Under the pieces are notes generated by a model. That model was not told the DNA's origin, ran no database searches, and was given only the letters and a program-made list of their open reading frames with translations. A stretch of 16,615 bases of DNA from Myxococcota bacterium (GTDB lineage: Bacteria > Myxococcota > JACRCW01): contig JBFMGU010000236.1 in the NCBI GenBank assembly GCA_040752415.1, forward strand, positions 1-16,615, in the 5' to 3' direction. The position numbers and the translations under genes are program-made. Below, one piece after another: positions 3,643-15,200 of the stretch; the first letter of the stretch is position 1, and every line of letters begins with the position of its first letter.

Positions 3643-4929
3643 TCAGATCGCGCGCGCAGCCGGTCCGTCGGCGCTCCCGCCCTGACGACGCACCGGTGCC
3701 TTCTGCGGCAGACCACGCAGGAGCGCGCCGACGGTGTCACGGACGGGGTCGGTGGCGCGGAGGCGCGCGGCCATGCTGCGGGCGCGGGCGCGCATCTGGG
3801 AGTTGGCCAGCGCTTCCTGGAGGGCGCGGGTGAGGCGGCGGGCGGTGAGGTGACGTCGCCAGATGGGCCTGGGCCCCATGCCCAGCGTGAAGACCTGGTG
3901 GCCCCAGTAGTGCTGGTCCATGAGGTGCGGCACCACCACCTGTGGCACTCCTGCGCGGGCCGCCGCCGACGTGGTCCCCGCGCCGCCATGGTGCGCCACC
4001 GCGGCCATGCGCGGGAGGAGCAGCGCGTGGTCCAGCGGCGGGATGAGCTTGCAGTGCGGCGGGACCTTGAGCCCGTTGAGCGTGGCGAACTCGCCGGAGA
4101 TGAGCGCGCGTCTTCCCAGCGCCCACATGCTCTCGAAGATGAGGTCCGCGGTGCGGTTGGGGTTGGGGTCCGGTACGCTGCCAAAGCCGATGTAGACGGG
4201 TGGCTCGCCCTCGAGGACGAACGCTTCCACGTCGTCAGGGAGCCGGCCGGACGCGGGGCACTGCAGCGCGCCGGTCTGCAGCACGGGCACTTCCACGTCG
4301 GCGGGGACGGTGCTGAGGGCGGGATCCGCGGCGAGGATGGGTTGGCTGCCGACGAGGTGTCGCAGCACGTCCTGGATGGGGCGCAGGCCCAGGCGGGTGC
4401 GGAGGCGGTTGATGAGCGGCCGCACCGTCATCTCGATGGCCGACTGGCCCACCTGCCAGGAGAGCCGGTTGGCCCACGTAGGCAGCGACGACCACGGCAG
4501 GATCCACGGCGGGTGCTCCGACGAGGGCAGGAACTGCGGGCAGTAGAACAGGTAGCGGTAGGGCACCCCCATCAGCTCCGCCACCGACGCGGCCGCCAGG
4601 TGCACCGAGCCCCCCACGACGAGGTCCGCGTTCTTGACGACCGGCAGCAGGCTGGCGAACTGCGATTCCACCTCGGACTCGAGCAGCTTCGCGACCCCCT
4701 GGAGCAACTCGATGGGGTTGGCGTTCGCGCGCCACGCATGCTCGCGCACGTAGCTGTGGAAGTCGCGACCCATCGGGAGGAACGGGACGCCGCGTTCCCG
4801 GACCCAGTCCGAATGGTTGGGTGACGCGCAGACCAGGACGCTGTGGCCACCCGCCTGAAGCCCACCGGCGAGCGCGACCATCGGTTGCACGTCGCCCCGA
4901 GATCCGGAGGCTGCGAGGATGATTCTCAC
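3643..4929 (-). CDS. GT1-family (GT-B) glycosyltransferase, sterol/antibiotic glycosyltransferase-like
   Basis: N-terminal GSRGDVQP, YIGFGS and HHGGAGTT...GVPQVVVPHLMDQHYW motifs. GTG at 4929 is preceded by GGGAGG; the ORF track starts at 4941. Confidence 0.92.
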   Translation of the reverse strand: MRIILAASGSRGDVQPMVALAGGLQAGGHSVLVCASPNHSDWVRERGVPFLPMGRDFHSYVREHAWRANANPIELLQGVAKLLESEVESQFASLLPVVKNADLVVGGSVHLAAASVAELMGVPYRYLFYCPQFLPSSEHPPWILPWSSLPTWANRLSWQVGQSAIEMTVRPLINRLRTRLGLRPIQDVLRHLVGSQPILAADPALSTVPADVEVPVLQTGALQCPASGRLPDDVEAFVLEGEPPVYIGFGSVPDPNPNRTADLIFESMWALGRRALISGEFATLNGLKVPPHCKLIPPLDHALLLPRMAAVAHHGGAGTTSAAARAGVPQVVVPHLMDQHYWGHQVFTLGMGPRPIWRRHLTARRLTRALQEALANSQMRARARSMAARLRATDPVRDTVGALLRGLPQKAPVRRQGGSADGPAARAI

Positions 4930-5117
4930 GTTCCCTCCCAACGCCGGGCGTGCGCGTCAGCGCGGAGGAAACAGCGACGAGGGGTGGATTATTTCTCCGG
5001 GGATCTCGAAGCTGTTGCGCGTCGTCGAAACGTCGTCGGCGCCCGGTCGCCCGCTGTTCCGACCGCGCGTTTCGCGCTAGATCCCGCCCCCCGGAAGGGG
5101 CACAGGGATCGGATTCC

Positions 5118-5582
5118 ATGGAGCGGCGCAAATGGGGGAGGACGCGGCGCGTTGTTGGCGTTGGGACGGTGTTGGTCCTTGTGGGAGCCTGCAACTACTT
5201 CAAGGCGGCCACGTGTTTCTCCCACGAGGACTCGGAATGCGAGCCGGGGTACTACTGCGACGTCGAGCGCGAAGTCTGCGTCCAGGGTACGCGCCCAGAT
5301 GCCGGAATCGAGTCGACCGCGTCCTCGTCTTCCAGCGGCGGGAACTCGACGTCTTCCGACGCAAGCTCAGGATCATCTTCGTCCGGCTCGTCCGGCGGCA
5401 CCTCATCTGGCCCGTATGAGAGTCCGGGCAGACTGAGAGTGACCGTCGGTGGAGGAGCGCGTTTGGACGGCAACGGTCGAACCCTCTACCTCAATGTCGG
5501 ATCGCCGTTGGGCGGGCGGCCGACGGGACCCAACAGCTACGTCGAGCCCGGGATTCCGGCGCAGACGCGGTCACACCCATGA
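5118..5582 (+). CDS. Lipoprotein: Cys-rich motif, Ser/Gly linker, small C-terminal beta-rich domain (module 1 putative anchor)
   Basis: From ATG 5118: MERRKWGRTRRVVGVGTVLVLVGA-C (basic N-region, hydrophobic core, lipobox-like). Then CFSHEDSECEPGYYCDVEREVC and a Ser-rich tract. ATGA overlap with the next gene. Confidence 0.75.
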   Translation: MERRKWGRTRRVVGVGTVLVLVGACNYFKAATCFSHEDSECEPGYYCDVEREVCVQGTRPDAGIESTASSSSSGGNSTSSDASSGSSSSGSSGGTSSGPYESPGRLRVTVGGGARLDGNGRTLYLNVGSPLGGRPTGPNSYVEPGIPAQTRSHP

Positions 5583-7588
5583 ACCCACGCACCATCGTTT
5601 CTCGCGCGCTTCCGGCGGCGATGATCGCGGTCATCGCAGGCTACGCGCCTCCGTCGTCTGCGACGCCACCCGAGAAGATCAACATCCAAGGCGTCCTTCG
5701 AGAGGATGCTGGTGGATTGCAGGATGGCCTTTTTACGTTTCGCGTTCGCCTGATTGACGGCGATGCTGCATTCTACGACGAGACCTATCCCAGCGTCGTC
5801 GTGGAGAGCGGTGTCTTCAGCCTGGATCTCGACGCGACCGGAGCCGGACTCCCCTTGCTTCTGCAACAGCACCCAGCCGCACGCGTTGAGATCACGGTTG
5901 ACGGCGAGGTTCTTTCGGCGGAACCGCTGGGCTCGTCTCCCTACGCGCTCTACTGCGGCGCTGCGGACTCCGCGATCAACGCGCTGCAATTGGGAGGAAG
6001 ACCGGCAGCGGAATGGGTAGCGCGTGACGCCTTGTCAGACGCGGACCCGGCGACGGCGCCTGTGAGTTGGAAGGGTTTGACGTCCTTCCCGTCGGGTTGC
6101 CCGGAGGGGCAGTTTGCCGTCGGGTTTGACGACGCCACCGGAGATCTGCTCTGTGACGTTGGAACGTCTGAAGCTGACATCACGTCGGTGACGGCAGGGA
6201 GTGGTCTTCTCGGCGGTGGGGCCAGCGGTGCGCTAACGCTCGGGGTCGACCCCACGGTTGTGCAGGCGCGCGTTTCGGGAGCGTGTGCCGCTGGGTTCGC
6301 GGTGTCGAGCATTGACGAGGCGGGACAGGTGGCTTGCGAAGCGACCGGCATCACTTCTCTGAACGTCGGGCCAGGCCTTTCAAGTGGCGGTACTGGGACA
6401 GCGACGGTCATCGAGATCGATGAGACGTACGTTCAAAGAAGGGTATCGAGCGCCTGCGCGCCCGGTTCCTTCATTACCGGGATCGCGGCTGACGGCTCTG
6501 TGACGTGTGATCCGGACCGTACCAACTCGTTCACTCGGACTCTGCATGTTCCTACAGTCCCCGGCGACGCAGCGCAGGCTGGACAGAGGCTTGTGAATGC
6601 GGTGGCGGACGCATCCGACGCGACAGCGCAGAATCCCTACCTCATCAAACTGGAGCCCGGCACATACGATCTCGGCACTTCGAGTCTCGCGCTGCTCCCC
6701 TACGTTGATATCGAGGGTGCTGGAAGGCGAGCCACCGTCGTGTCTTCATCCTTCGACGGTGTGTCCGGCACCATCGTGCTTGCTGGCAACAACGAGCTTC
6801 GAGCGCTGACGGTGGACAACCGGGGTGGCGGAACCAAGGCCACTGCCGTGTCCGGGAACGCAGATGGCTTGCGTTTGGTGGACGTGGTCTTGAGTGCAAC
6901 TGCGCCGTCCGGCCTCGCACGCGGGCTGGATATCGCTGGTGGGACCGTGGAGCTGAGGTCTGTGACAGTGAGCGTTAGCGGTGCCGAGTCCACGGGCGTG
7001 AATCTGACGTCGGCGACCCTTGATTTGTCTGATGTCATCATCGGTGTTGCAGGGGCGGTCAACGCCCGCGGTCTGGCGTGCACCCAGTCAAGTGGTCACG
7101 TGAGGGCAGTTCGCGTCACCGCGATTGACGCAAACACGACAATCGGCGTCGTGGCATCGCAGTGCGGGGCGGAGATGACGGACGTCAGCGTCGTCGTAAC
7201 CAGTGCCGACTCCTGCCAGGGATACCTCATCGAACTCACGCCGTCTCCAAGGGTGACGCGTTCGTCGGCGGATGTGTCATGCACGAACGCGCATGGCGTC
7301 CTGGTTGGCGCAGAACCCGCCGATCCCCTGTTCGAGTCCGTCACCCTCACCGCCGCCGGTGGTCCAACCGCGACGGCGGTGGGGCTCTATCGCACGGGTG
7401 ACTCAGCGACGTTCCGCAACTCGAGCTTGAATGCGCCAGTGGCGGTGCAAGCTGCGGCGCCCTCCACATTCCGCGCCGCGTCGACGCTGATATCCGGCAC
7501 GCTTCTGAACGACCCTGGAACAGCGTCGTTCGTCTGCGCCGGCGCGTTCAACGCGCAATACGTATCCCTCAATGCAACATGCCAGTAG
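5579..7588 (+). CDS. Secreted tail-fibre/tailspike-like protein (N-terminal domain, Cys/beta stalk repeats, C-terminal right-handed beta-helix-like region)
   Basis: Signal peptide; INIQGVLRE...VESGVFSLDL...SSPYAL N-terminal domain; 57-aa tandem repeats; PYLIKLEPGTYDLG...YVDIEGAGRRATVV typical of the start of pectin-lyase-like beta-helices. Confidence 0.75.
   Translation: MNPRTIVSRALPAAMIAVIAGYAPPSSATPPEKINIQGVLREDAGGLQDGLFTFRVRLIDGDAAFYDETYPSVVVESGVFSLDLDATGAGLPLLLQQHPAARVEITVDGEVLSAEPLGSSPYALYCGAADSAINALQLGGRPAAEWVARDALSDADPATAPVSWKGLTSFPSGCPEGQFAVGFDDATGDLLCDVGTSEADITSVTAGSGLLGGGASGALTLGVDPTVVQARVSGACAAGFAVSSIDEAGQVACEATGITSLNVGPGLSSGGTGTATVIEIDETYVQRRVSSACAPGSFITGIAADGSVTCDPDRTNSFTRTLHVPTVPGDAAQAGQRLVNAVADASDATAQNPYLIKLEPGTYDLGTSSLALLPYVDIEGAGRRATVVSSSFDGVSGTIVLAGNNELRALTVDNRGGGTKATAVSGNADGLRLVDVVLSATAPSGLARGLDIAGGTVELRSVTVSVSGAESTGVNLTSATLDLSDVIIGVAGAVNARGLACTQSSGHVRAVRVTAIDANTTIGVVASQCGAEMTDVSVVVTSADSCQGYLIELTPSPRVTRSSADVSCTNAHGVLVGAEPADPLFESVTLTAAGGPTATAVGLYRTGDSATFRNSSLNAPVAVQAAAPSTFRAASTLISGTLLNDPGTASFVCAGAFNAQYVSLNATCQ
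6098..6511 (+). repeat. Protein-level tandem repeats in the fibre stalk (three C-x2-G...G-x3-C units, two IT-S-[VL]-x2-G-x-GL units)
   Basis: CPEGQFAVGFDDATGDLLC / CAAGFAVSSIDEAGQVAC / CAPGSFITGIAADGSVTC, interleaved with ITSVTAGSGLLGGGASGALTLGVD / ITSLNVGPGLSSGGTGTATVIEID. Confidence 0.7.
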
Positions 7589-7612
7589 CGTCTCGGGGCC
7601 TGGCGCGAAGCA

Positions 7613-8794
7613 TCATTGCGGGAAGAACGCGGCCTGAAGGTAGGTCTGGTAGAACGTGTCAGCGTTCGCGGACCCAGCCTCACCGTCGCCGCTCCAGGAC
7701 CAGCCGTTCAAGTAGAATGTGTGGTCCCCCGCCCCCACCTGGAACACCTCCTGAAGGACCACGGTGTGCTGGGTAGCCTCTGAAACCGTCGGGTAGGGCG
7801 CTGGGATCTCGAACCAATTGTTGGCCCCAGTGGCTTCTTCGGTGCAACTCGAGCTGCTTCGCGCGATCACGAGCTCAATCTTGTCCGCGGTACCCTGTAC
7901 GTGCTTCAGCGAGACGTGCGCTGTGGCCTGCACCACGACCCGGCCCGCTGTCGGCGCCGTTATCGTCACCTCGGCGCCTGTTGGGTGCGTGCAGGGGAGG
8001 AACGGGATGACCTCGGTATGGGAAGCGCTGCTCTCGGCCATCCTTGGCGCCGGCGCACCATTGCACGCGTACGTTGTCACCCCTCCCACGGTGAACGCGC
8101 TGCCTCCGTAGGTGCAGTTCGTTCCCGCCGGCTCCGACGCGCCCACCACCGACTCACCTGCCGGCCCCTGCGGACCCGTGTTGCCCGCGGGCCCTTGGAT
8201 GCCCTGCGGCCCCTGCGGACCGGTGTTTCCCGTCGGACCTTGCGGGCCCGTGTTTCCCTGTGGTCCCTGCAGTCCCTGCGGCCCCTGAAGGCCCTGCGGC
8301 CCCTGGGGACCCTCCGGCCCCTGGGGACCCTCCGGCCCCTGCGGTCCTTCCGGCCCCTGCGGTCCCTGCAGCAGCTCCGGCTTCCCGTCGACGTCATTCC
8401 AGTGCACGTAGTCCGCCACGTCCGCCACCGACGCGCGCACCGCGAACGGAACGGCGCCCACGCGCACGCGCGGCAGCGTGTCGTACGCGCTGGTGACGGG
8501 GTCGCGCACGCTGACCGAGAGATACGCGTCCGGCGTCGGCGAAGAGAACAGCGCGCCGATGTCGTCCTGGAAGAGGCCGTCGTTGACCTGCACGGGGTGG
8601 TCGCCGATGGTGCCGATGACATTGCCGCCCGTCGGCGCGTCATACAGCCGGTACATGATGGTGTACATGCCGGTTGGTGCCGGGGAGCCGTTGTCCAGGA
8701 GTGTGGCACGGTAGATGACGGAGCCCGGTGTGTTGGCCTGGGCCACACTGGCGGCGAGCATCAACGCAACGACGAGGGACATGTTCACACGCAT
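7613..8794 (-). CDS. Secreted collagen-like fibre protein (N-terminal domain related to 5579..7588, collagen stalk, C-terminal beta-sandwich-like head)
   Basis: Signal peptide ending [12 protein letters not shown]...[11 protein letters not shown]...AVPFAVRA domain; 24 G-X-Y triplets; [11 protein letters not shown]...YACNG motif. ATG 8794 has AGGAG 8 nt upstream; the alternative ATG 8812 overlaps the upstream stop. Confidence 0.85.
8150..8365 (-). repeat. Collagen G-X-Y repeat (24 triplets)
   Basis: [72 protein letters not shown], with 9/18-bp DNA periodicity. Confidence 0.95.
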
Positions 8795-8808
8795 GCTGCA
8801 CACTCCTG

Positions 8809-9537
8809 TCATGGCCCGGGCGTGATGGTGCCGCCCACGATTTCGTAGCGGGCGCCGGCAGCCGCACCGGGGACCAACTCCAGCTCACCCTGCACCGACC
8901 AGCGCGCGCCCTGACCCGTGTTGAGCGGGACGGAAACGGCCGCGTCACAGAGGCCGAAGCGCGCCCCGTTGACGGACTGGTCGCAACGCGCGGTCCCCCC
9001 GCCCGAGCTGCTGGACGAGGACGCCGACGACGAAGAAGAAGACGATGATGACGACGAAGAGGACGATGCCGACGACGCGCTGGACGACGACGAAGCACCC
9101 CCTGAAGAGGACGACGACGAGGGCGCGCCCGACGACGAAGTGGATGCACCACCGCCGGACGACGAAGACGCGCTCGACGACGCGCCCGAGCTGCCGCCCC
9201 CCGACGAGCTCGAACTTGTGGAGGACCCGGGTTCCCCCGAGGAGGATCCACCCGACGAGGAGCTCGCTCCCGAGGTGGAGTCCCCAGAAGACCCCGAGCT
9301 GCTCGCACCTCCGGACGACGACGAGGAGGCGGTGGTGGTGGAGGCGGTCCCGCTGGAGGAGGAGCTGCTGAGGCCCGGCAGCGTGCAGACCCCATCCGCG
9401 CAGACCTTCCCGTCGGGGCAGTCGTTGTCCACGACGCACCCCGGGGGCGGCGACTCGTTGTCGTTGGGCTGCGTCTGGGGGCAACCCAGCGCCCCGAGCA
9501 CAAGACAAGCGAGGAAGGTGGAGAGGCGCAGCTTCAT
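8809..9537 (-). CDS. Lipoprotein: Cys-rich motif, long Ser/Gly linker, small C-terminal beta-rich domain (module 2 putative anchor)
   Basis: From ATG 9537: [19 protein letters not shown] (lipobox). Then [18 protein letters not shown], about 120 aa of poly-Ser/Gly, and C-terminal [26 protein letters not shown]. Confidence 0.8.
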
Positions 9538-9656
9538 GACGTCACGGTCCTGGTGCGTATCACCGGCCCCGTGAGCCTTCAATGCGTCCTGGCGCGTTTC
9601 CCGTTGACGGGGCGCGGTGGTGGGGGCCATAGGGCGCACCCTGACGGAGGTGAGTC

Positions 9657-10877
9657 TTGTTGGGTCCCCTGCCAATGCTTCCGCCCGAGCTGTCCGAGCG
9701 GCGGGTGGCCTTGGTGCATGACTGGCTGGTGTCCACGCGCGGCGGTGAGAGCGTGTTGGCGTCGTTGTGTCGTCTGTTTCCGGGCGCGCCCATCCACACG
9801 CTGTTCCACGAACGCTCGCAGATGCTCGGCCCCGTGGGTGAAGCCATCAACGCCCATCCCATCGTCGTCTCGCCGCTGCAGAAACTCCCGGGGGCCCGCA
9901 GGGTGTACCGCGCGTTGCTCCCGTTGATGCCATACGCCATCGAGTCGTTCGACTTCCGCGACTTCGACCTCGTCATCAGCAGCAGCCACTGCGTGGCCAA
10001 GGGCATCATCGCGCCGCCCACGGCGCTGCACGTCAGCTACATCCACACGCCCATGCGCTACGCGTACGAGCAGATGCCGGAGTACTTCGGCGACGGACGC
10101 CTGCCCGCGCTGGGGCGCCTCCCCATCCAGGTGGCCATGCACCACCTGCGGCTGTGGGATCAGCTCACGGCCGCGCGCGTCGACACCTTCGTGGCCAACA
10201 GCCACCACGTGGCCCGGCGGGTGATGGCGCGCTACCGACGGGAAGCCACCGTGGTGCACCCGCCCGTCGACATGGACCGTTTCAGCGTGGGGGCCCCGCA
10301 TGAGCGCACTGGCCGCTTCCTGATGGTGGGCGCGTTCGCGCCGTACAAGCGCGCTGACGTCGCCGTCGAGGCGTTCAACCGCCTGAAGCTGCCCTTGGAC
10401 ATCGTGGGGGAGGGGCAGGACAAGAAGCGTCTGATGGCCATGGCGGGTCCCACCATCCGCTTCCTGGGCCGTCTCTCCGACGAGGAAGTGACCCGCGTGT
10501 ACCGTCAGGCGCGCGCATTCATCTTCCCCGGCGAGGAGGACTTCGGCATCACGCCGCTGGAGTCCATGGCGAGCGGGACGCCGGTCATCGCGTTGGGGCA
10601 GGGGGGCGCGCTCGAGACCGTCGTCGATCTTGTCGAGGGAAGCCGCGCCACGGGCGTGCTCTATCCCGCCGCGAGCGTCGAGGGGTTGGTGGGGGGTGTG
10701 GAGCGCTTCCTGGCCCATGAGCGTGAGGTCTCCCCGCACGCTGCGCGCGCCCAGGCCATGCGCTTTGCGCGTCCGCGCTTCGAGGAGCAGATGGTGGCGG
10801 TGCTGAAACAGGCCATGGCGGCCAAGCGCGCGTCGTCCGTTCCCAGCCGCGAGGAACGACCGGACCCGGCTTGCTGA
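9657..10877 (+). CDS. GT4-family glycosyltransferase
   Basis: VALVHDWL...GGESVL, YIHTPMRYAY, YKRAD and EEDFGITPLESMASGTPVIA motifs. GGAGG lies 6 nt before TTG 9657; alternative ATG at 9675. Confidence 0.93.
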   Translation: MLGPLPMLPPELSERRVALVHDWLVSTRGGESVLASLCRLFPGAPIHTLFHERSQMLGPVGEAINAHPIVVSPLQKLPGARRVYRALLPLMPYAIESFDFRDFDLVISSSHCVAKGIIAPPTALHVSYIHTPMRYAYEQMPEYFGDGRLPALGRLPIQVAMHHLRLWDQLTAARVDTFVANSHHVARRVMARYRREATVVHPPVDMDRFSVGAPHERTGRFLMVGAFAPYKRADVAVEAFNRLKLPLDIVGEGQDKKRLMAMAGPTIRFLGRLSDEEVTRVYRQARAFIFPGEEDFGITPLESMASGTPVIALGQGGALETVVDLVEGSRATGVLYPAASVEGLVGGVERFLAHEREVSPHAARAQAMRFARPRFEEQMVAVLKQAMAAKRASSVPSREERPDPAC

Positions 10878-11581: not shown

Positions 11582-13360
11582 TCAAATCACCGACGCTTCC
11601 TGCAGCGCGTGCAGCCGCGCGTAGTACCCACCCAGCGTAATCAGCTCGTCGTGGGAGCCCTGTTCCACGAGCTGGCCGCGCTGCATGACCAGGATGCGGT
11701 CACAGCCCGTCAGCGTGCTGAGCCGGTGCGCCACGATGAGCGCGGTCCGTCCCTCCAGCAGCTTCGCCGTTGCCACCTGCAGCAGCCGCTCGGTCTCGGG
11801 GTCCACGCTCGCGGTAGCCTCGTCGAGGATGATGCACGGCGGGTCGGCCACCAGCGCGCGCGCAAACGCGAGCAGTTGCCGCTCTCCGACGCTGAGGTTG
11901 ATCCCCCGCTCCTTGATGTTCGCTCCCAGCCCGCCGACACGCTCCACCAGCACCCGCGCCTGCACGGCTTCCAGCGCGCGCCACAACTGCTCGTCGCTGG
12001 CGCTGGGAGCGCCGAAGCGCAGGTTGTCCGCCACCGTCCCGGAGAACAGGTGCACCTCCTGCGGCACGGCGAGGATGTTCCTCCGCAGCGTGCGCAGCTC
12101 CATGTCCTGCACGTCGGTGCCGTCGACGGTGATCATGCCGCGCCCGGTCTCGTAGTGTCGGAGCAGCAGGCGCGTGAGCGTGGTCTTCCCGCTGCCCGTC
12201 CGACCCACCAGCGCAATCTTCTCACCCGGCTTCACGTGGAAGGTCACGTCGCGCAGGGCCACGTTTCCGCCGCCGTACGCGAACGTGACGCGCTTGAACG
12301 AGAGCCCCTCCTTCAGCGCGCCCAGCTTCACGGGCTCCTGCCGCTCGGTGATGTGCTCCGGCTCGTCAATCAACGAGAACACGCGCTCGGCGCCGGCCAG
12401 CGCGCTCTGCACCAGCGTGTACTTCGTCGAGAGGTCGCGCACGGGCAGGTAGAAGCGCTGCAGGTACTCCACGAACGCCACCGCCACTCCCAGCGTCTCC
12501 GTCCCGCCGAGGATCTCGCTGCTGGCCATGACCAGCAGGATCGCCACCGACGTGGTGCTGACGGATTCCACGAACGCGTAGATCCCCGCGTCGAGCGCAA
12601 TCGCGCGCTGGTTGGCCTTGCGGTACGCGTCGTTGATCTCGTCGAACTTGCGTGCGGTGCGGGCTTCCTGGCCAAAGAGCTGGACCACCGCCATGCCGCT
12701 GATGTGCTCCTGCAGGAACCCGTTGAGACGGCCCACCTGCGTGCGCACCTCGCGGAACGCCTCGCGCGCGGCCCGGCGGAAATAGTGCACGCCCACCGCC
12801 AGCAGCGGGAGCACCACGAACGCCGCGAGCGTGAGCCGGGTGCTGGTCCAGAACAAGAGCGCCGCCGTGGCGACGAGGAACAGGATGTCGCCCAGGATCG
12901 TGATCGACCCGGAAGCGAACAGCTCCGCGAGGGACTCGACGTCGCTGGTGACGCGGGTCATGACGCGGCCCGCGGGCGTGCGGTCGAAGTATGCCTGGTG
13001 CAGGCGTTGGATCTTGCGGAACAGGGCGAGGCGCAGGTCGCGGGTGACGCGTTGACCCATGAGCTGCATCGCGGAGAGCTGGATGAACTGCCCCAGCGTC
13101 TGCACCATGAGCGCGGCGAGGTAGAGGAAGCCCAGGTTCGCCACCGCCTGCGCGGCCTCGGGGGAAGGACCCTTCTGTAGGACTCCGTCGACCACCCGGC
13201 CCAGCAGGTACGGCTGCAACAGCGCGCTGGCGTTCAGCGGCACGTAGAGCAGCAAGGAAAAGGCGAACAGGACCCGGTGCGGGTGCATCAGGCGCACCAT
13301 CCGCCGGATGAGCTGCGGGTCGTAGGTGTTCTTGAGCAGCTCGTCGGGTGCGGCGCTCAT
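11582..13360 (-). CDS. ABC exporter fused TMD-NBD half-transporter (MdlB/YheH/TM288-like subunit)
   Basis: Membrane domain, Walker A GRTGSGKT, degenerate signature LSVGERQ, Walker B IILDE, H-loop AHR. ATG 13360 overlaps the upstream stop (ATGA). Confidence 0.92.
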   Translation of the reverse strand: MSAAPDELLKNTYDPQLIRRMVRLMHPHRVLFAFSLLLYVPLNASALLQPYLLGRVVDGVLQKGPSPEAAQAVANLGFLYLAALMVQTLGQFIQLSAMQLMGQRVTRDLRLALFRKIQRLHQAYFDRTPAGRVMTRVTSDVESLAELFASGSITILGDILFLVATAALLFWTSTRLTLAAFVVLPLLAVGVHYFRRAAREAFREVRTQVGRLNGFLQEHISGMAVVQLFGQEARTARKFDEINDAYRKANQRAIALDAGIYAFVESVSTTSVAILLVMASSEILGGTETLGVAVAFVEYLQRFYLPVRDLSTKYTLVQSALAGAERVFSLIDEPEHITERQEPVKLGALKEGLSFKRVTFAYGGGNVALRDVTFHVKPGEKIALVGRTGSGKTTLTRLLLRHYETGRGMITVDGTDVQDMELRTLRRNILAVPQEVHLFSGTVADNLRFGAPSASDEQLWRALEAVQARVLVERVGGLGANIKERGINLSVGERQLLAFARALVADPPCIILDEATASVDPETERLLQVATAKLLEGRTALIVAHRLSTLTGCDRILVMQRGQLVEQGSHDELITLGGYYARLHALQEASVI

Positions 13361-15200
13361 GCCACCTGCTCCTTCTGGCTGGCGTCCATCTTCTCCAGGT
13401 CCCGCAGCACGCGCTCCCGACCCCACAGCGCCGCGTATCGGCCGCCCTTGCGCAGCAGCTCCTCGTGCCCACCCCGCTCGACGATGCGCCCCGCGTCCAG
13501 CACCACGATCTCGTCGGCGTCCTTCACCGCGCTCAAGCGGTGTGAGATGACCACCAGCGTGCGTCGGTGCGCCTCGGCGCGCAGCGCGTGGAGGATCTTC
13601 TCCTCCGTCTCCGCGTCGACGGCGCTGACGGTGTCATCCAGCACCAGCACCCGCGGCTCGCACAGGAGGGCGCGTCCCAACGCCACGCGTTGCCTCTGCC
13701 CACCGGACAGCGTGATCCCCTTCTCCCCGACGACGGTGGACCAACCCTGCGGGAGCTGCGAGATGTCCTGCTCCAACGAGAGCAGCTCCACCACGCGCTT
13801 GACCTCATCCTCGCTCGCGTCCGGGCGACCGAAACGGAGGTTTTCGAGGATGGACGTGCTGAACAGGAACGCCTCCTGCGGCGCCAGTGCCACGTCGTGA
13901 CGGAGCGAGGGGAGGGCGCGGGCACGGACGTCCACGTCGTCGACCAGGACGGCGCCGGTGGTGGGATCGCGCAAGCGCGGCAGCAGGCCCGCCAGCGTGC
14001 TCTTCCCACTCCCCGTCCCCCCCACGACACCCAGGAACCCACGCGCCGGCAGCGTGATGTCCACGTCCTGCAGCGTCCAACGCGGCGCCTGCTTCTCTGC
14101 CGTGCGCTGCACCCCCACGCTCCGCAACCCCACGGCGCCCTCACGCGCAGGCGGCGCGACGGGCTTCCCGGCCGACGCAATCGTCGGGGCCACCACGAAG
14201 ATCTCGTTGAGCCGCTCCAGCGACGCCTTCCCGCGTTGCCACACGGCGAGGATCCAGCCCAGCGCCAACGTGGGCCACGCCATCAGCGCCAGCCGGCCGT
14301 GGAACTCCACGAGGTCACCGACGGTGATGTGCCCCGCCAGCACGCGGTGCGCGCCGTACCACAACGCCACCAACGCGCTCCCCGTCCCCAGCAGGGCCAT
14401 CACCGGTCCCAGCAGGTTGCGCGTGAAGGTGAGTCGGATGCTGCTCTGGTAGTAGCGCTGGTTGACGGCCTGGAAGCGCTCCACCTCCGCTTCTTCCTGC
14501 GCAAAGGCCCGCACCACGGCTTCAGTCCCGCCAGGTGCTCCTGGATGCGCGTGGATAGCGCGCCCAGGTCCTCCTGGTTCACCTTGGTCATCGAGAACAC
14601 ATTGCGCGCCACCACCCGCACCACGACGAGCACGATGGGGTAGGGCGCCATGCACGCCAGCGCCAGCGGGAGATCCAACTGGATGAGCAGCGGGATGTTG
14701 CCCGCGTACGCCACGAAGGTGTTGATGAGGTTCAACGTGGCAAACCCCAGCAGCAGGCGCACGTTGCTGAGGTCGTTGATGGCGCGCGACATCAGGTCGC
14801 CCACCGGGCGCGACTCGAAGAACTCCTGCGGTTGCGCGCAGAGGTGCGCATAGAGGTCCTGGCGCAGCCGGTATTCGATGTCACGCCCGACGTTGAACAC
14901 ATACACGCGGCTGAGCACGCGCGTGCCCGCCATGAGCAAGGAAGCGCCCACCATCCACAGCGCAATCTCCACCATCTGCTGCAGCGGAAGATGCGCGCGC
15001 AATCCCTCGACGCCACGGTTGAGCAGCCGCGGCAGCCACAGGGACATGCCGTTGGTGATGAGCAGCCAGAGCACGCCCCAGAGGAACGCTCCGGTGTGCG
15101 GACGGAAGATCTGTCCCAGCGTGCGGCGTCCCACACGCGCTGCCACGAACTCGCTCACGGTGTCACTCCGTGGCGCGGACATTCCTGTCTGCGGCGTCAC
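13357..15200 (-). pseudogene. ABC exporter half-transporter (MdlA/YheI/TM287-like subunit), frameshifted near 14521 (true pseudogene or sequencing error)
   Basis: The N-half (14400..15200 frame) reads to ...QEHLAGL and the C-half (13357..14655 frame) continues AVVRAFAQE.... It has Walker A GGTGSGKS, signature LSGGQRQ and Walker B VLVLDD. Confidence 0.85.

Follow-up and report, generated by a model that had tools for sequence, protein, structure and literature searches.

The 16,615-bp contig JBFMGU010000236.1 of a Myxococcota bacterium (assembly GCA_040752415.1), designated C153 and referred to in its entirety as the window, encodes at 5118-9537 two convergent gene pairs (A and B), each consisting of a lipoprotein gene followed within 0-15 nucleotides (nt) by a gene for a fibre protein with a Sec signal peptide. 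The two fibres share an N-terminal domain (hereafter N-domain), and genes for fibres with this domain adjoin genes for small partner proteins in two phyla, with an exchange of the anchor type, from a lipid in Myxococcota to a sorting domain of the type IX secretion system (T9SS) in Bacteroidota. These observations suggest that the partner serves as a tether, and possibly also as an export adaptor, for the fibre base; with binding inferred from comparative genomics, we put the probability of this reading at roughly 0.55. The original prediction, which was made from the nucleotide sequence of the window, described two convergent modules of a lipoprotein and a fibre that have one plan and little sequence identity, and all four genes were found at the predicted positions.

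A common N-terminal domain in dissimilar fibres

Comparison of fibres A and B with BLASTP yielded no significant similarity (E = 13 over an N-terminal stretch). An iterated hidden Markov model (HMM) search against the 139,044 six-frame open reading frames (ORFs) of the source genome (11.0 Mb in 520 contigs, approximately 67% G+C) converged on 16 ORFs, including both window fibres, with domain E-values of 1e-36 for fibre A and 4e-27 for fibre B. The two N-termini are also connected through common paralogues on contigs C312 and C131 that show cross-matches to both. The identity between the N-domains of fibres A and B is 22% in alignment A1, compared with 44-63% between the fibre A domain and its paralogues. 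Thus, the shared domain that the original prediction reported is real at the profile level and invisible to pairwise BLAST; non-homologous fibre N-termini had been named there as grounds for abandoning the idea, and the HMM and the shared paralogues show a common domain.

When the A1 profile (16 sequences) was run against 1.84 billion cluster representatives, 75,122 were matched at E<=0.001 and 30,566 at E<=1e-10. Of the 150 top-scoring proteins listed, most have the start of the match among residues 1-70, and Pfam assigned no family to the N-domain in any of 34 of the best matches. In the ESM Atlas, the part aligned with the N-domain is labelled PF30789 in eight of the ten structural neighbours listed, and the neighbour clusters come from Myxococcota, Verrucomicrobiota, Bacteroidota, Pseudomonadota, and phages, one cluster being mostly viral. 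No mention of PF30789 was found in the literature searched. A homologue search with the fibre A N-domain recovered proteins from the same genome only, and one with alignment A4 recovered 80 proteins, of which those named are hypothetical proteins from metagenome-assembled genomes of Myxococcota or Deltaproteobacteria.

AlphaFold2 (AF2) modeling from a 90-row alignment predicted, with confidence, a seven-strand beta sandwich (predicted local distance difference test [pLDDT] >90 over residues 10-95). With this model, Foldseek gave no match at E<=0.001, and VIA-align found generic immunoglobulin (Ig)-like folds (best Z-score = 6.8). Sequence searches of the PDB with A1, fibre A, and the head of fibre B returned nothing meaningful. 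In other lineages, some proteins contain the N-domain twice or more per chain (P0028, P0032, and P0040), for example, at residues ~20-130 and ~200-300 of P0032; because such tandem domains occur in one chain, the N-domain is not always a single fibre base.

Downstream of the N-domain, fibre A has the neck sequence PVSWKGLTSFP (about nt 6059-6091), and the corresponding motif V-x-W-x2-[LVI]-x3-P, first noticed in the two window fibres, recurs among the paralogues. Fibre A as a whole has no Pfam or PDB sequence match and no recognised trimerisation module, and its head belongs to no family recognised by Pfam or PDB sequence search. In fibre B, residues 149-201 and beyond match the collagen family PF01391 (E = 3.6e-13; 49.5 bits against a cut-off of 27.2); this run of about 24 Gly-X-Y triplets implies that fibre B would form a triple helix and, hence, a trimer. 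NCBIfam models of collagen-like adhesins match fibre B below their cut-offs, and PHROG tail-fibre families match it (best E = 5e-29) through the collagen stretch only. The tips found behind the N-domain among the 34 A1 matches scanned include Peptidase_S74, collagen, YadA_head, gp53-like, TIG/DUF1554, NHL, FGE-sulfatase, and fn3 domains, among others, and an S74-tipped member is encoded on contig C499 of the source genome. The fibres are indeed mosaic, as had been proposed, with one N-domain followed by many different tips. No YadA-type C-terminal membrane anchor was matched by Pfam in either window fibre at E-values up to 1.

The lipoprotein partners in the window

By inspection, lipoprotein A has a lipobox (...VLVLVGA-C, with Cys25 at nt 5190-5192), four more Cys residues up to residue 54 (nt 5279), a Ser/Gly linker, and a C-terminal region of approximately 50 aa with three short beta-type segments, which is the succession of elements that had been described for the first gene of the module. 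Lipoprotein B, also by inspection, has a lipobox (...VLGALG-C, with Cys19), a Cys motif, and a Ser-rich linker of approximately 130 aa. Its terminal motif (type B) comprises three repeats of the form G-A-R-aromatic-x-hydrophobic, the first pair of which is bracketed by Cys residues. Two partners from other genomes, each encoded upstream of a fibre, carry related ends (alignment A7).

No family in Pfam, NCBIfam, or PHROG scored above threshold for lipoprotein A; the same scans gave nothing above the cut-off for lipoprotein B, for which the NCBIfam model Myxo_Cys_RPT was a weak match below the cut-off. In these scans of the two lipoproteins and 14 further partner proteins, no family fell on the terminal motif. 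BLASTP produced no alignment between lipoproteins A and B, and comparison of their C-terminal ends with hhalign gave no support for homology (probability 0.3%, E = 0.18). The shared plan that had been claimed for the two lipoproteins, therefore, stands as a common layout, but homology of their C-terminal ends is not supported. Alignment A3 comprises 28 C-terminal sequences of the lipoprotein A kind (type A); a homologue search with A3 returned only its own members, and an ESM Atlas search with the terminal motif returned only weak, unnamed clusters. On the sequence evidence, the terminal motifs are split into classes that profiles fail to join, with lipoprotein A in the main class, type A; the other classes include type B, a GE-linker type, and a three-repeat VNY type.

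Pairing of partner and fibre genes in Myxococcota

For 10 of the 16 fibre genes in the source genome, the gene immediately upstream, in the same orientation, encodes a lipoprotein with this layout. An eleventh lipoprotein, a remnant, precedes a tandem fibre pair on contig C481 (C481:37505-41651, minus strand), where the lipoprotein motif breaks off into a fibre copy without an N-domain, followed by an intact fibre gene; this layout looks like a deletion that took the partner's end together with the fibre base. Two profiles of the terminal motif, one built from a 12-sequence seed and the other the iterated A3 profile, each matched 6 of the 139,044 source-genome ORFs, and all six immediately precede fibres. 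Clustering by BLAST groups the lipoproteins of C105, C112, C153+, C268, and C481, which adjoin the closest clade of N-domains, within which the heads vary. On C105, C112, and C268, the same protein of ~600-880 aa, with a C-terminal end that appears cupredoxin-like by eye, is encoded upstream of the lipoprotein.

In a sample of 201 Myxococcota genomes, the N-domain is present in 79. Upstream of approximately 48 of 86 fibre genes lies a gene for a small protein, either a lipoprotein or otherwise secreted, with two or three strand-like repeats at its end. These 86 genes are distinct, have 700 nt or more of DNA ahead of them, and come from the best-scoring places; eight N-domains too near a contig end were left out, and an automatic lipobox rule flagged 44 of the remaining 88, after which five false flags and two duplicate loci were dropped and nine missed cases added by eye, in an assessment that was not blind. 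A lipobox was also recognized, by inspection, in most partners of this sample.

The reverse search, with the A3 profile as the starting point, matched 47 places in 32 of 401 genomes (E<=1e-4). In 29 of the 30 loci that were fetched, an N-domain follows in the same orientation at a distance of 57-153 nt, the gap corresponding to the signal peptide of the fibre; when only loci outside the seed are counted, the proportion is 11/12. The exception, L143 (G037:C63:9988-13128), combines a type A match with no fibre N-domain in the 1.5 kb downstream, and the ORF in question is lipoprotein-like and rich in Cys, with two S-x-x-Y-R-L-R-L repeats at its end. The conserved gene adjacency proposed as a check on the original prediction is, thus, borne out in the source genome (10/16), in the phylum sample (~48/86), and in the reverse direction (29/30).

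At the A3 loci, the motif is terminal in the partner, with 0-13 residues after it. The spacer that separates it from the anchor is about 20 to about 300 residues long and differs in kind, being Ser/Gly/Thr-rich, (GE)n, (DG)n, acidic (D-x-x-D), or Cys-rich, or consisting of DUF4215 or TSP3 repeats. Judging from these sequences, only the two ends of the partner are constant and the spacer is free, which is what a tether looks like, unlike an enzyme. A search for natural lipoprotein-fibre fusions among representatives with internal N-domains yielded tandem N-domains only and no fusion.

The same pairing with a different anchor in Bacteroidota

The Bacteroidota sample was reached through a Pedobacter genome and its phylum. 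The N-domain was identified in 28 of 101 genomes, and of the 32 N-domain genes at 31 loci, 14 lie directly behind a gene for a partner of 173-220 aa and one more lies ahead of such a gene. In these partners, a three-strand motif comes immediately after the signal peptide, and a linker connects it to a T9SS type A sorting domain. The motif is type A-like (S-S-G-G, aromatic-x-L...[ST]-[VA]-G-[QE], aromatic-x-L-x-x-G-F). The sorting domain was identified above cut-off as TIGR04183 in 11 of the 11 partners tested and as PF18962 in 8 of 8; neither Pfam nor NCBIfam detected a T9SS sorting domain in window lipoproteins A and B. Proteins with a T9SS type A sorting domain lose this domain and become fixed to the cell surface. 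Because the domain scores above curated cut-offs, the Bacteroidota partners should be exported and surface-attached by the T9SS route. Among 12 full-length Bacteroidota fibres, which were picked for having such partners, Por_Secre_tail was found in none and Peptidase_S74 in nine.

A profile of the Bacteroidota motif (A6) matched 34 of 201 genomes, mostly once each. At 30 of these loci, the fibre gene is directly downstream in 26 and directly upstream in two, and no fibre gene is present in the other two; among loci outside the seed, the fibre is downstream in 13 of 16. In an hhalign comparison, the Myxococcota and Bacteroidota motif profiles align over 39 columns in the same register (E = 4.4e-4). 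The exchange of the lipid for a T9SS sorting domain lends comparative support to the anchor that had been proposed from the window alone, and the docking of its terminal motif onto the fibre remains the conjectural part of that proposal. At another locus (L165:760-1446, plus strand), the protein encoded upstream of the fibre ends in IPTL-CTERM (TIGR04174; 21.6 bits against a cut-off of 20.5), which may be a third kind of anchor.

Locus layout and genomic context

The coordinates of the four genes and their principal parts are given in Table 1. In pair A, the stop codon of the lipoprotein gene overlaps the start codon of the fibre gene as ATGA (5579-5582). The corresponding ATGA of pair B is present at 8809-8812, so both junctions exist as had been described, but the start of fibre B is probably Met7 (ATG at 8794), because an AGGAG sequence lies 8 nt ahead of this in-frame codon; in that case, the gene would start 15 nt past the lipoprotein B stop, and the coupling would still be tight.

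Table 1. Positions in the window of the two gene pairs and of the domains and motifs that they encode
Feature	Position (nt)	Strand	Basis	Remarks
Lipoprotein A (P0001, 154 aa)	5118..5582	+	Translation, sequence	ATG at 5118
Type A motif	5409..5579	+	First row of alignment A3	C-terminal three strands of lipoprotein A
Fibre A (P0003, 669 aa)	5579..7588	+	Translation	Sec signal peptide, N-domain, neck, Cys-bracketed stalk repeats, head
Fibre A N-terminal domain	5654..5998	+	HMM, alignments A1/A4, AF2	Predicted beta sandwich, ~115 aa
Fibre B (P0004, 399 aa)	7613..8812	-	Translation	Signal peptide, N-domain, neck motif, collagen-like stalk, globular head
Fibre B collagen-like Gly-X-Y run	8153..8368	-	Pfam PF01391	About 24 triplets
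Fibre B N-terminal domain	8390..8743	-	HMM, alignment A1	
Lipoprotein B (P0002, 242 aa)	8809..9537	-	Translation, sequence	
Type B motif	8812..9000	-	Alignment A7	C-terminal end of lipoprotein B

A family scan of 12 neighbouring ORFs gave matches for seven, which encode glycosyltransferases, ATP-binding cassette (ABC) exporters, and an Rce1-like protease, and the other five had no family match; none of the 12 matched a phage family. A scan for promoters and terminators over 4800-9900 of the window found nothing. Glycosyltransferase genes of the GT28/EryCIII-like MGT and GT4 types flank the two pairs on both sides (3643-4941, minus strand, and 9657-10877, plus strand), and the long Ser-rich linkers of the lipoproteins could be targets for O-glycosylation. 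An ABC exporter looks split between overlapping ORFs in different frames (13357-14655 and 14400-15200, both minus strand), with ABC_membrane positions 8-191 in one ORF and positions 192-262 plus the ATPase in the other; the split stems either from a frameshift in the gene or from an error in the assembly.

Proposed function of the pairs and alternative explanations

Under the tether interpretation, each pair would be one functional unit. The second gene would encode a trimeric surface fibre resembling phage tail fibres, with a constant beta-sandwich base on which stalk and tip can be exchanged. The first would encode a small tether with an anchoring signal at one end (in the window, an N-terminal lipid), a spacer, and, at the free end, a three-strand motif that would grip the fibre N-domain; the fibre base would be kept on the outer membrane, held out by a flexible stalk. 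Because the fibre has a Sec signal alone, the partner might, in addition, carry it over the outer membrane via the partner's own sorting route. We favor this interpretation because the motif is near-exclusive to the neighbourhood of the fibre base, the spacer is arbitrary, and the anchor at the opposite end varies with the lineage. The translational coupling suggests equimolar synthesis of the two proteins. The contact, its stoichiometry, the surface exposure, and the role in export are all inferred.

Several findings weigh against such a tether. Fibre genes are often found alone: 6 of the 16 in the source genome lack an upstream lipoprotein of this plan, as do about half of those in the Myxococcota sample, and 18 of the 32 Bacteroidota N-domain genes have no upstream partner. 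Among the six in the source genome, one is near a contig start behind another gene, two follow genes for giant proteins, one follows a gene for a 966-aa Cys-rich protein, one has nothing recognisable upstream, and one is the second member of a tandem pair. A whole subfamily of fibres, distinguished by an extra Cys motif at the mature N-terminus (A-Q-S-V-x-C-x-G...F-P-C-G), follows a giant protein of 660-2400 aa instead of a small lipoprotein; it was found at C112:7573-11730 and C504:17233-19890 in the source genome and at loci L042, L056, L065, L066, and L067, and three of its members are arranged in tandem on G162:C73. Taken together, the unpaired fibres and this subfamily imply that the partner would either not be universally required or act in trans. 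The remaining difficulties concern the motif and the contact. Across the ten source-genome pairs, pairwise identity of the motif does not follow that of the N-domain (Spearman 0.09, p = 0.55), in a comparison in which the alignments of short pieces are noisy and one pair is 100% identical over a tiny stretch. AF2 modeling of the type A motif alone yielded only a hairpin (mean pLDDT of 58). The type B motif (A7) was linked by hhalign to neither the type A motif (A3) nor the Bacteroidota motif (A6), and the cross-phylum match between the latter two has a probability of only 33.6% and could reflect convergence on a generic beta-hairpin pattern. Both the contact and the surface exposure of the lipoproteins in Myxococcota are assumed. 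For a complex of three fibre N-domains (A4) and three motifs (A3), predicted without controls, the scores were 0.01 and 0.03 (mark, 0.32), a result that bears on binding in neither direction.

Conserved adjacency and translational coupling would suit a chaperone equally well, and the partner could be an assembly or export factor only, one that makes only transient contact with the fibre, periplasmic or at the outer membrane, like a tail-fibre assembly protein or a pilotin, and is not a lasting anchor. The presence of outer-membrane sorting signals on the partners and none on the fibres is compatible with such a factor, as is the finding that the motif alone has no stable fold. An arbitrary spacer of 20-300 residues combined with an obligatory attachment signal would, however, be odd in a catalytic chaperone, and many of the fibres have an intramolecular chaperone of their own, S74; we consider a pure assembly factor rather unlikely. 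With the contact conjectural and the covariation flat, the pair might instead comprise surface components that are co-expressed without binding each other, the partner being, for example, a spacer or coat protein that is glycosylated, or a co-receptor working alongside the fibre. The glycosyltransferase genes that flank the window pairs, the unlinked type A and type B motifs, and the half of the fibres that have no partner all fit this explanation, but conservation in the partner is limited to a short terminal motif, which is essentially confined to neighbours of the N-domain in two phyla and tracks the N-domain clade, not the head type. Non-binding neighbours appear quite unlikely.

The matches of fibre B to tail-fibre PHROGs (best E = 5e-29), the S74 and gp53-like tips in the family, and the mostly viral ESM Atlas cluster raise the question of whether the pairs are left over from tail-fibre cassettes of a prophage or tailocin, each consisting of a fibre and an assembly gene, with no cellular role. 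Given that the PHROG matches are confined to the collagen stretch, that both proteins have secretion signals, with a lipobox on the partner, that the 12 neighbouring ORFs scanned in the window matched no phage family, those with a match being glycosyltransferases, ABC exporters, and an Rce1-like protease, and that 16 copies are dispersed over the source genome, this origin is highly improbable.

Relationship to known systems

The closest known counterparts of the window fibres are the mosaic adhesive trimer (MAT) fibres, which mediate prey recognition in Bdellovibrio (Caulton et al. 2024, PMC10769870). According to the accessible parts of that paper, B. bacteriovorus HD100 has 21 MAT fibres in S74 and non-S74 subgroups, with an invariant predicted N-terminal domain that has no PDB homologue; the surface element bound by this domain is described there as awaiting identification, and no anchor is named. 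The MAT members in its Supplementary Table S3 include a 559-aa protein with a beta-helix tip from a Myxococcales bacterium, a collagen-like one from Saprospiraceae, and others from Bradymonadaceae, further FCB-group bacteria, and Omnitrophica. The likeness extends to secreted fibres with a constant N-terminal domain and exchangeable tips (S74, collagen-like, beta-helix, and lectin-type in MAT fibres), to the many paralogues per genome (21 in HD100 and 16 here), to the generic Ig-like matches that are all that the window N-domain model, too, finds, and to the taxa of Table S3, which are of the kinds in which we found the N-domain; it is a likeness of architecture and taxonomic distribution, and homology of the N-domains is putative. 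The window fibres are new members of a class of mosaic fibre that is already known. The accessible parts of PMC10769870 make no mention of the partner gene reported here, and the available portions of a 2026 review and of a Peredibacter genome paper name no anchor or partner gene either. No description of an anchor or partner was found in the literature searched, in which coverage of subscription journals was thin, and, as far as could be found, a conserved partner with an exchangeable anchor is undescribed.

Other surface systems share parts of this plan. The Bacteroidota partners resemble T9SS type A cargo in carrying TIGR04183/PF18962 but differ from it in consisting of a motif of ~50 aa and a linker that apparently serve a fibre without a sorting domain of its own (0/12), and in the window partners, a lipobox takes the place of that domain. 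The pair fibres have in common with phage tail fibres that end in an S74 intramolecular chaperone, and with collagen-like minor tail proteins, the collagen or S74 modules, the V-x-W neck, and the presumed logic of a trimeric fibre; the pair fibres, in contrast, are cellular, Sec-exported, encoded in multiple chromosomal copies, and paired with a membrane-anchored partner, and their N-terminal base is not a phage baseplate-attachment domain. YadA-type trimeric autotransporters are trimeric surface fibres with mosaic heads and stalks, an architecture that the pair fibres would share, and YadA_head occurs in some members of the present family, but Pfam found no C-terminal anchor barrel in fibres A and B, and their anchoring would be N-terminal, through a separate protein.

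The motif protein could be the general surface element for MAT-type fibres, that is, a cross-phylum adaptor with a lineage-specific sorting signal that both carries and holds the fibre. We regard this broader proposal as tentative and rather doubtful. The tiny conserved partner is, nevertheless, a concrete and cheaply testable candidate for the surface element missing from the MAT system, in a fibre family that is very large by the count of cluster representatives, and it may help to explain the exit from the periplasm of fibres whose sole signal is Sec. Should the role of the partner be confirmed, the pairs would define a portable two-part display system composed of a tether and a fibre base with an exchangeable tip.

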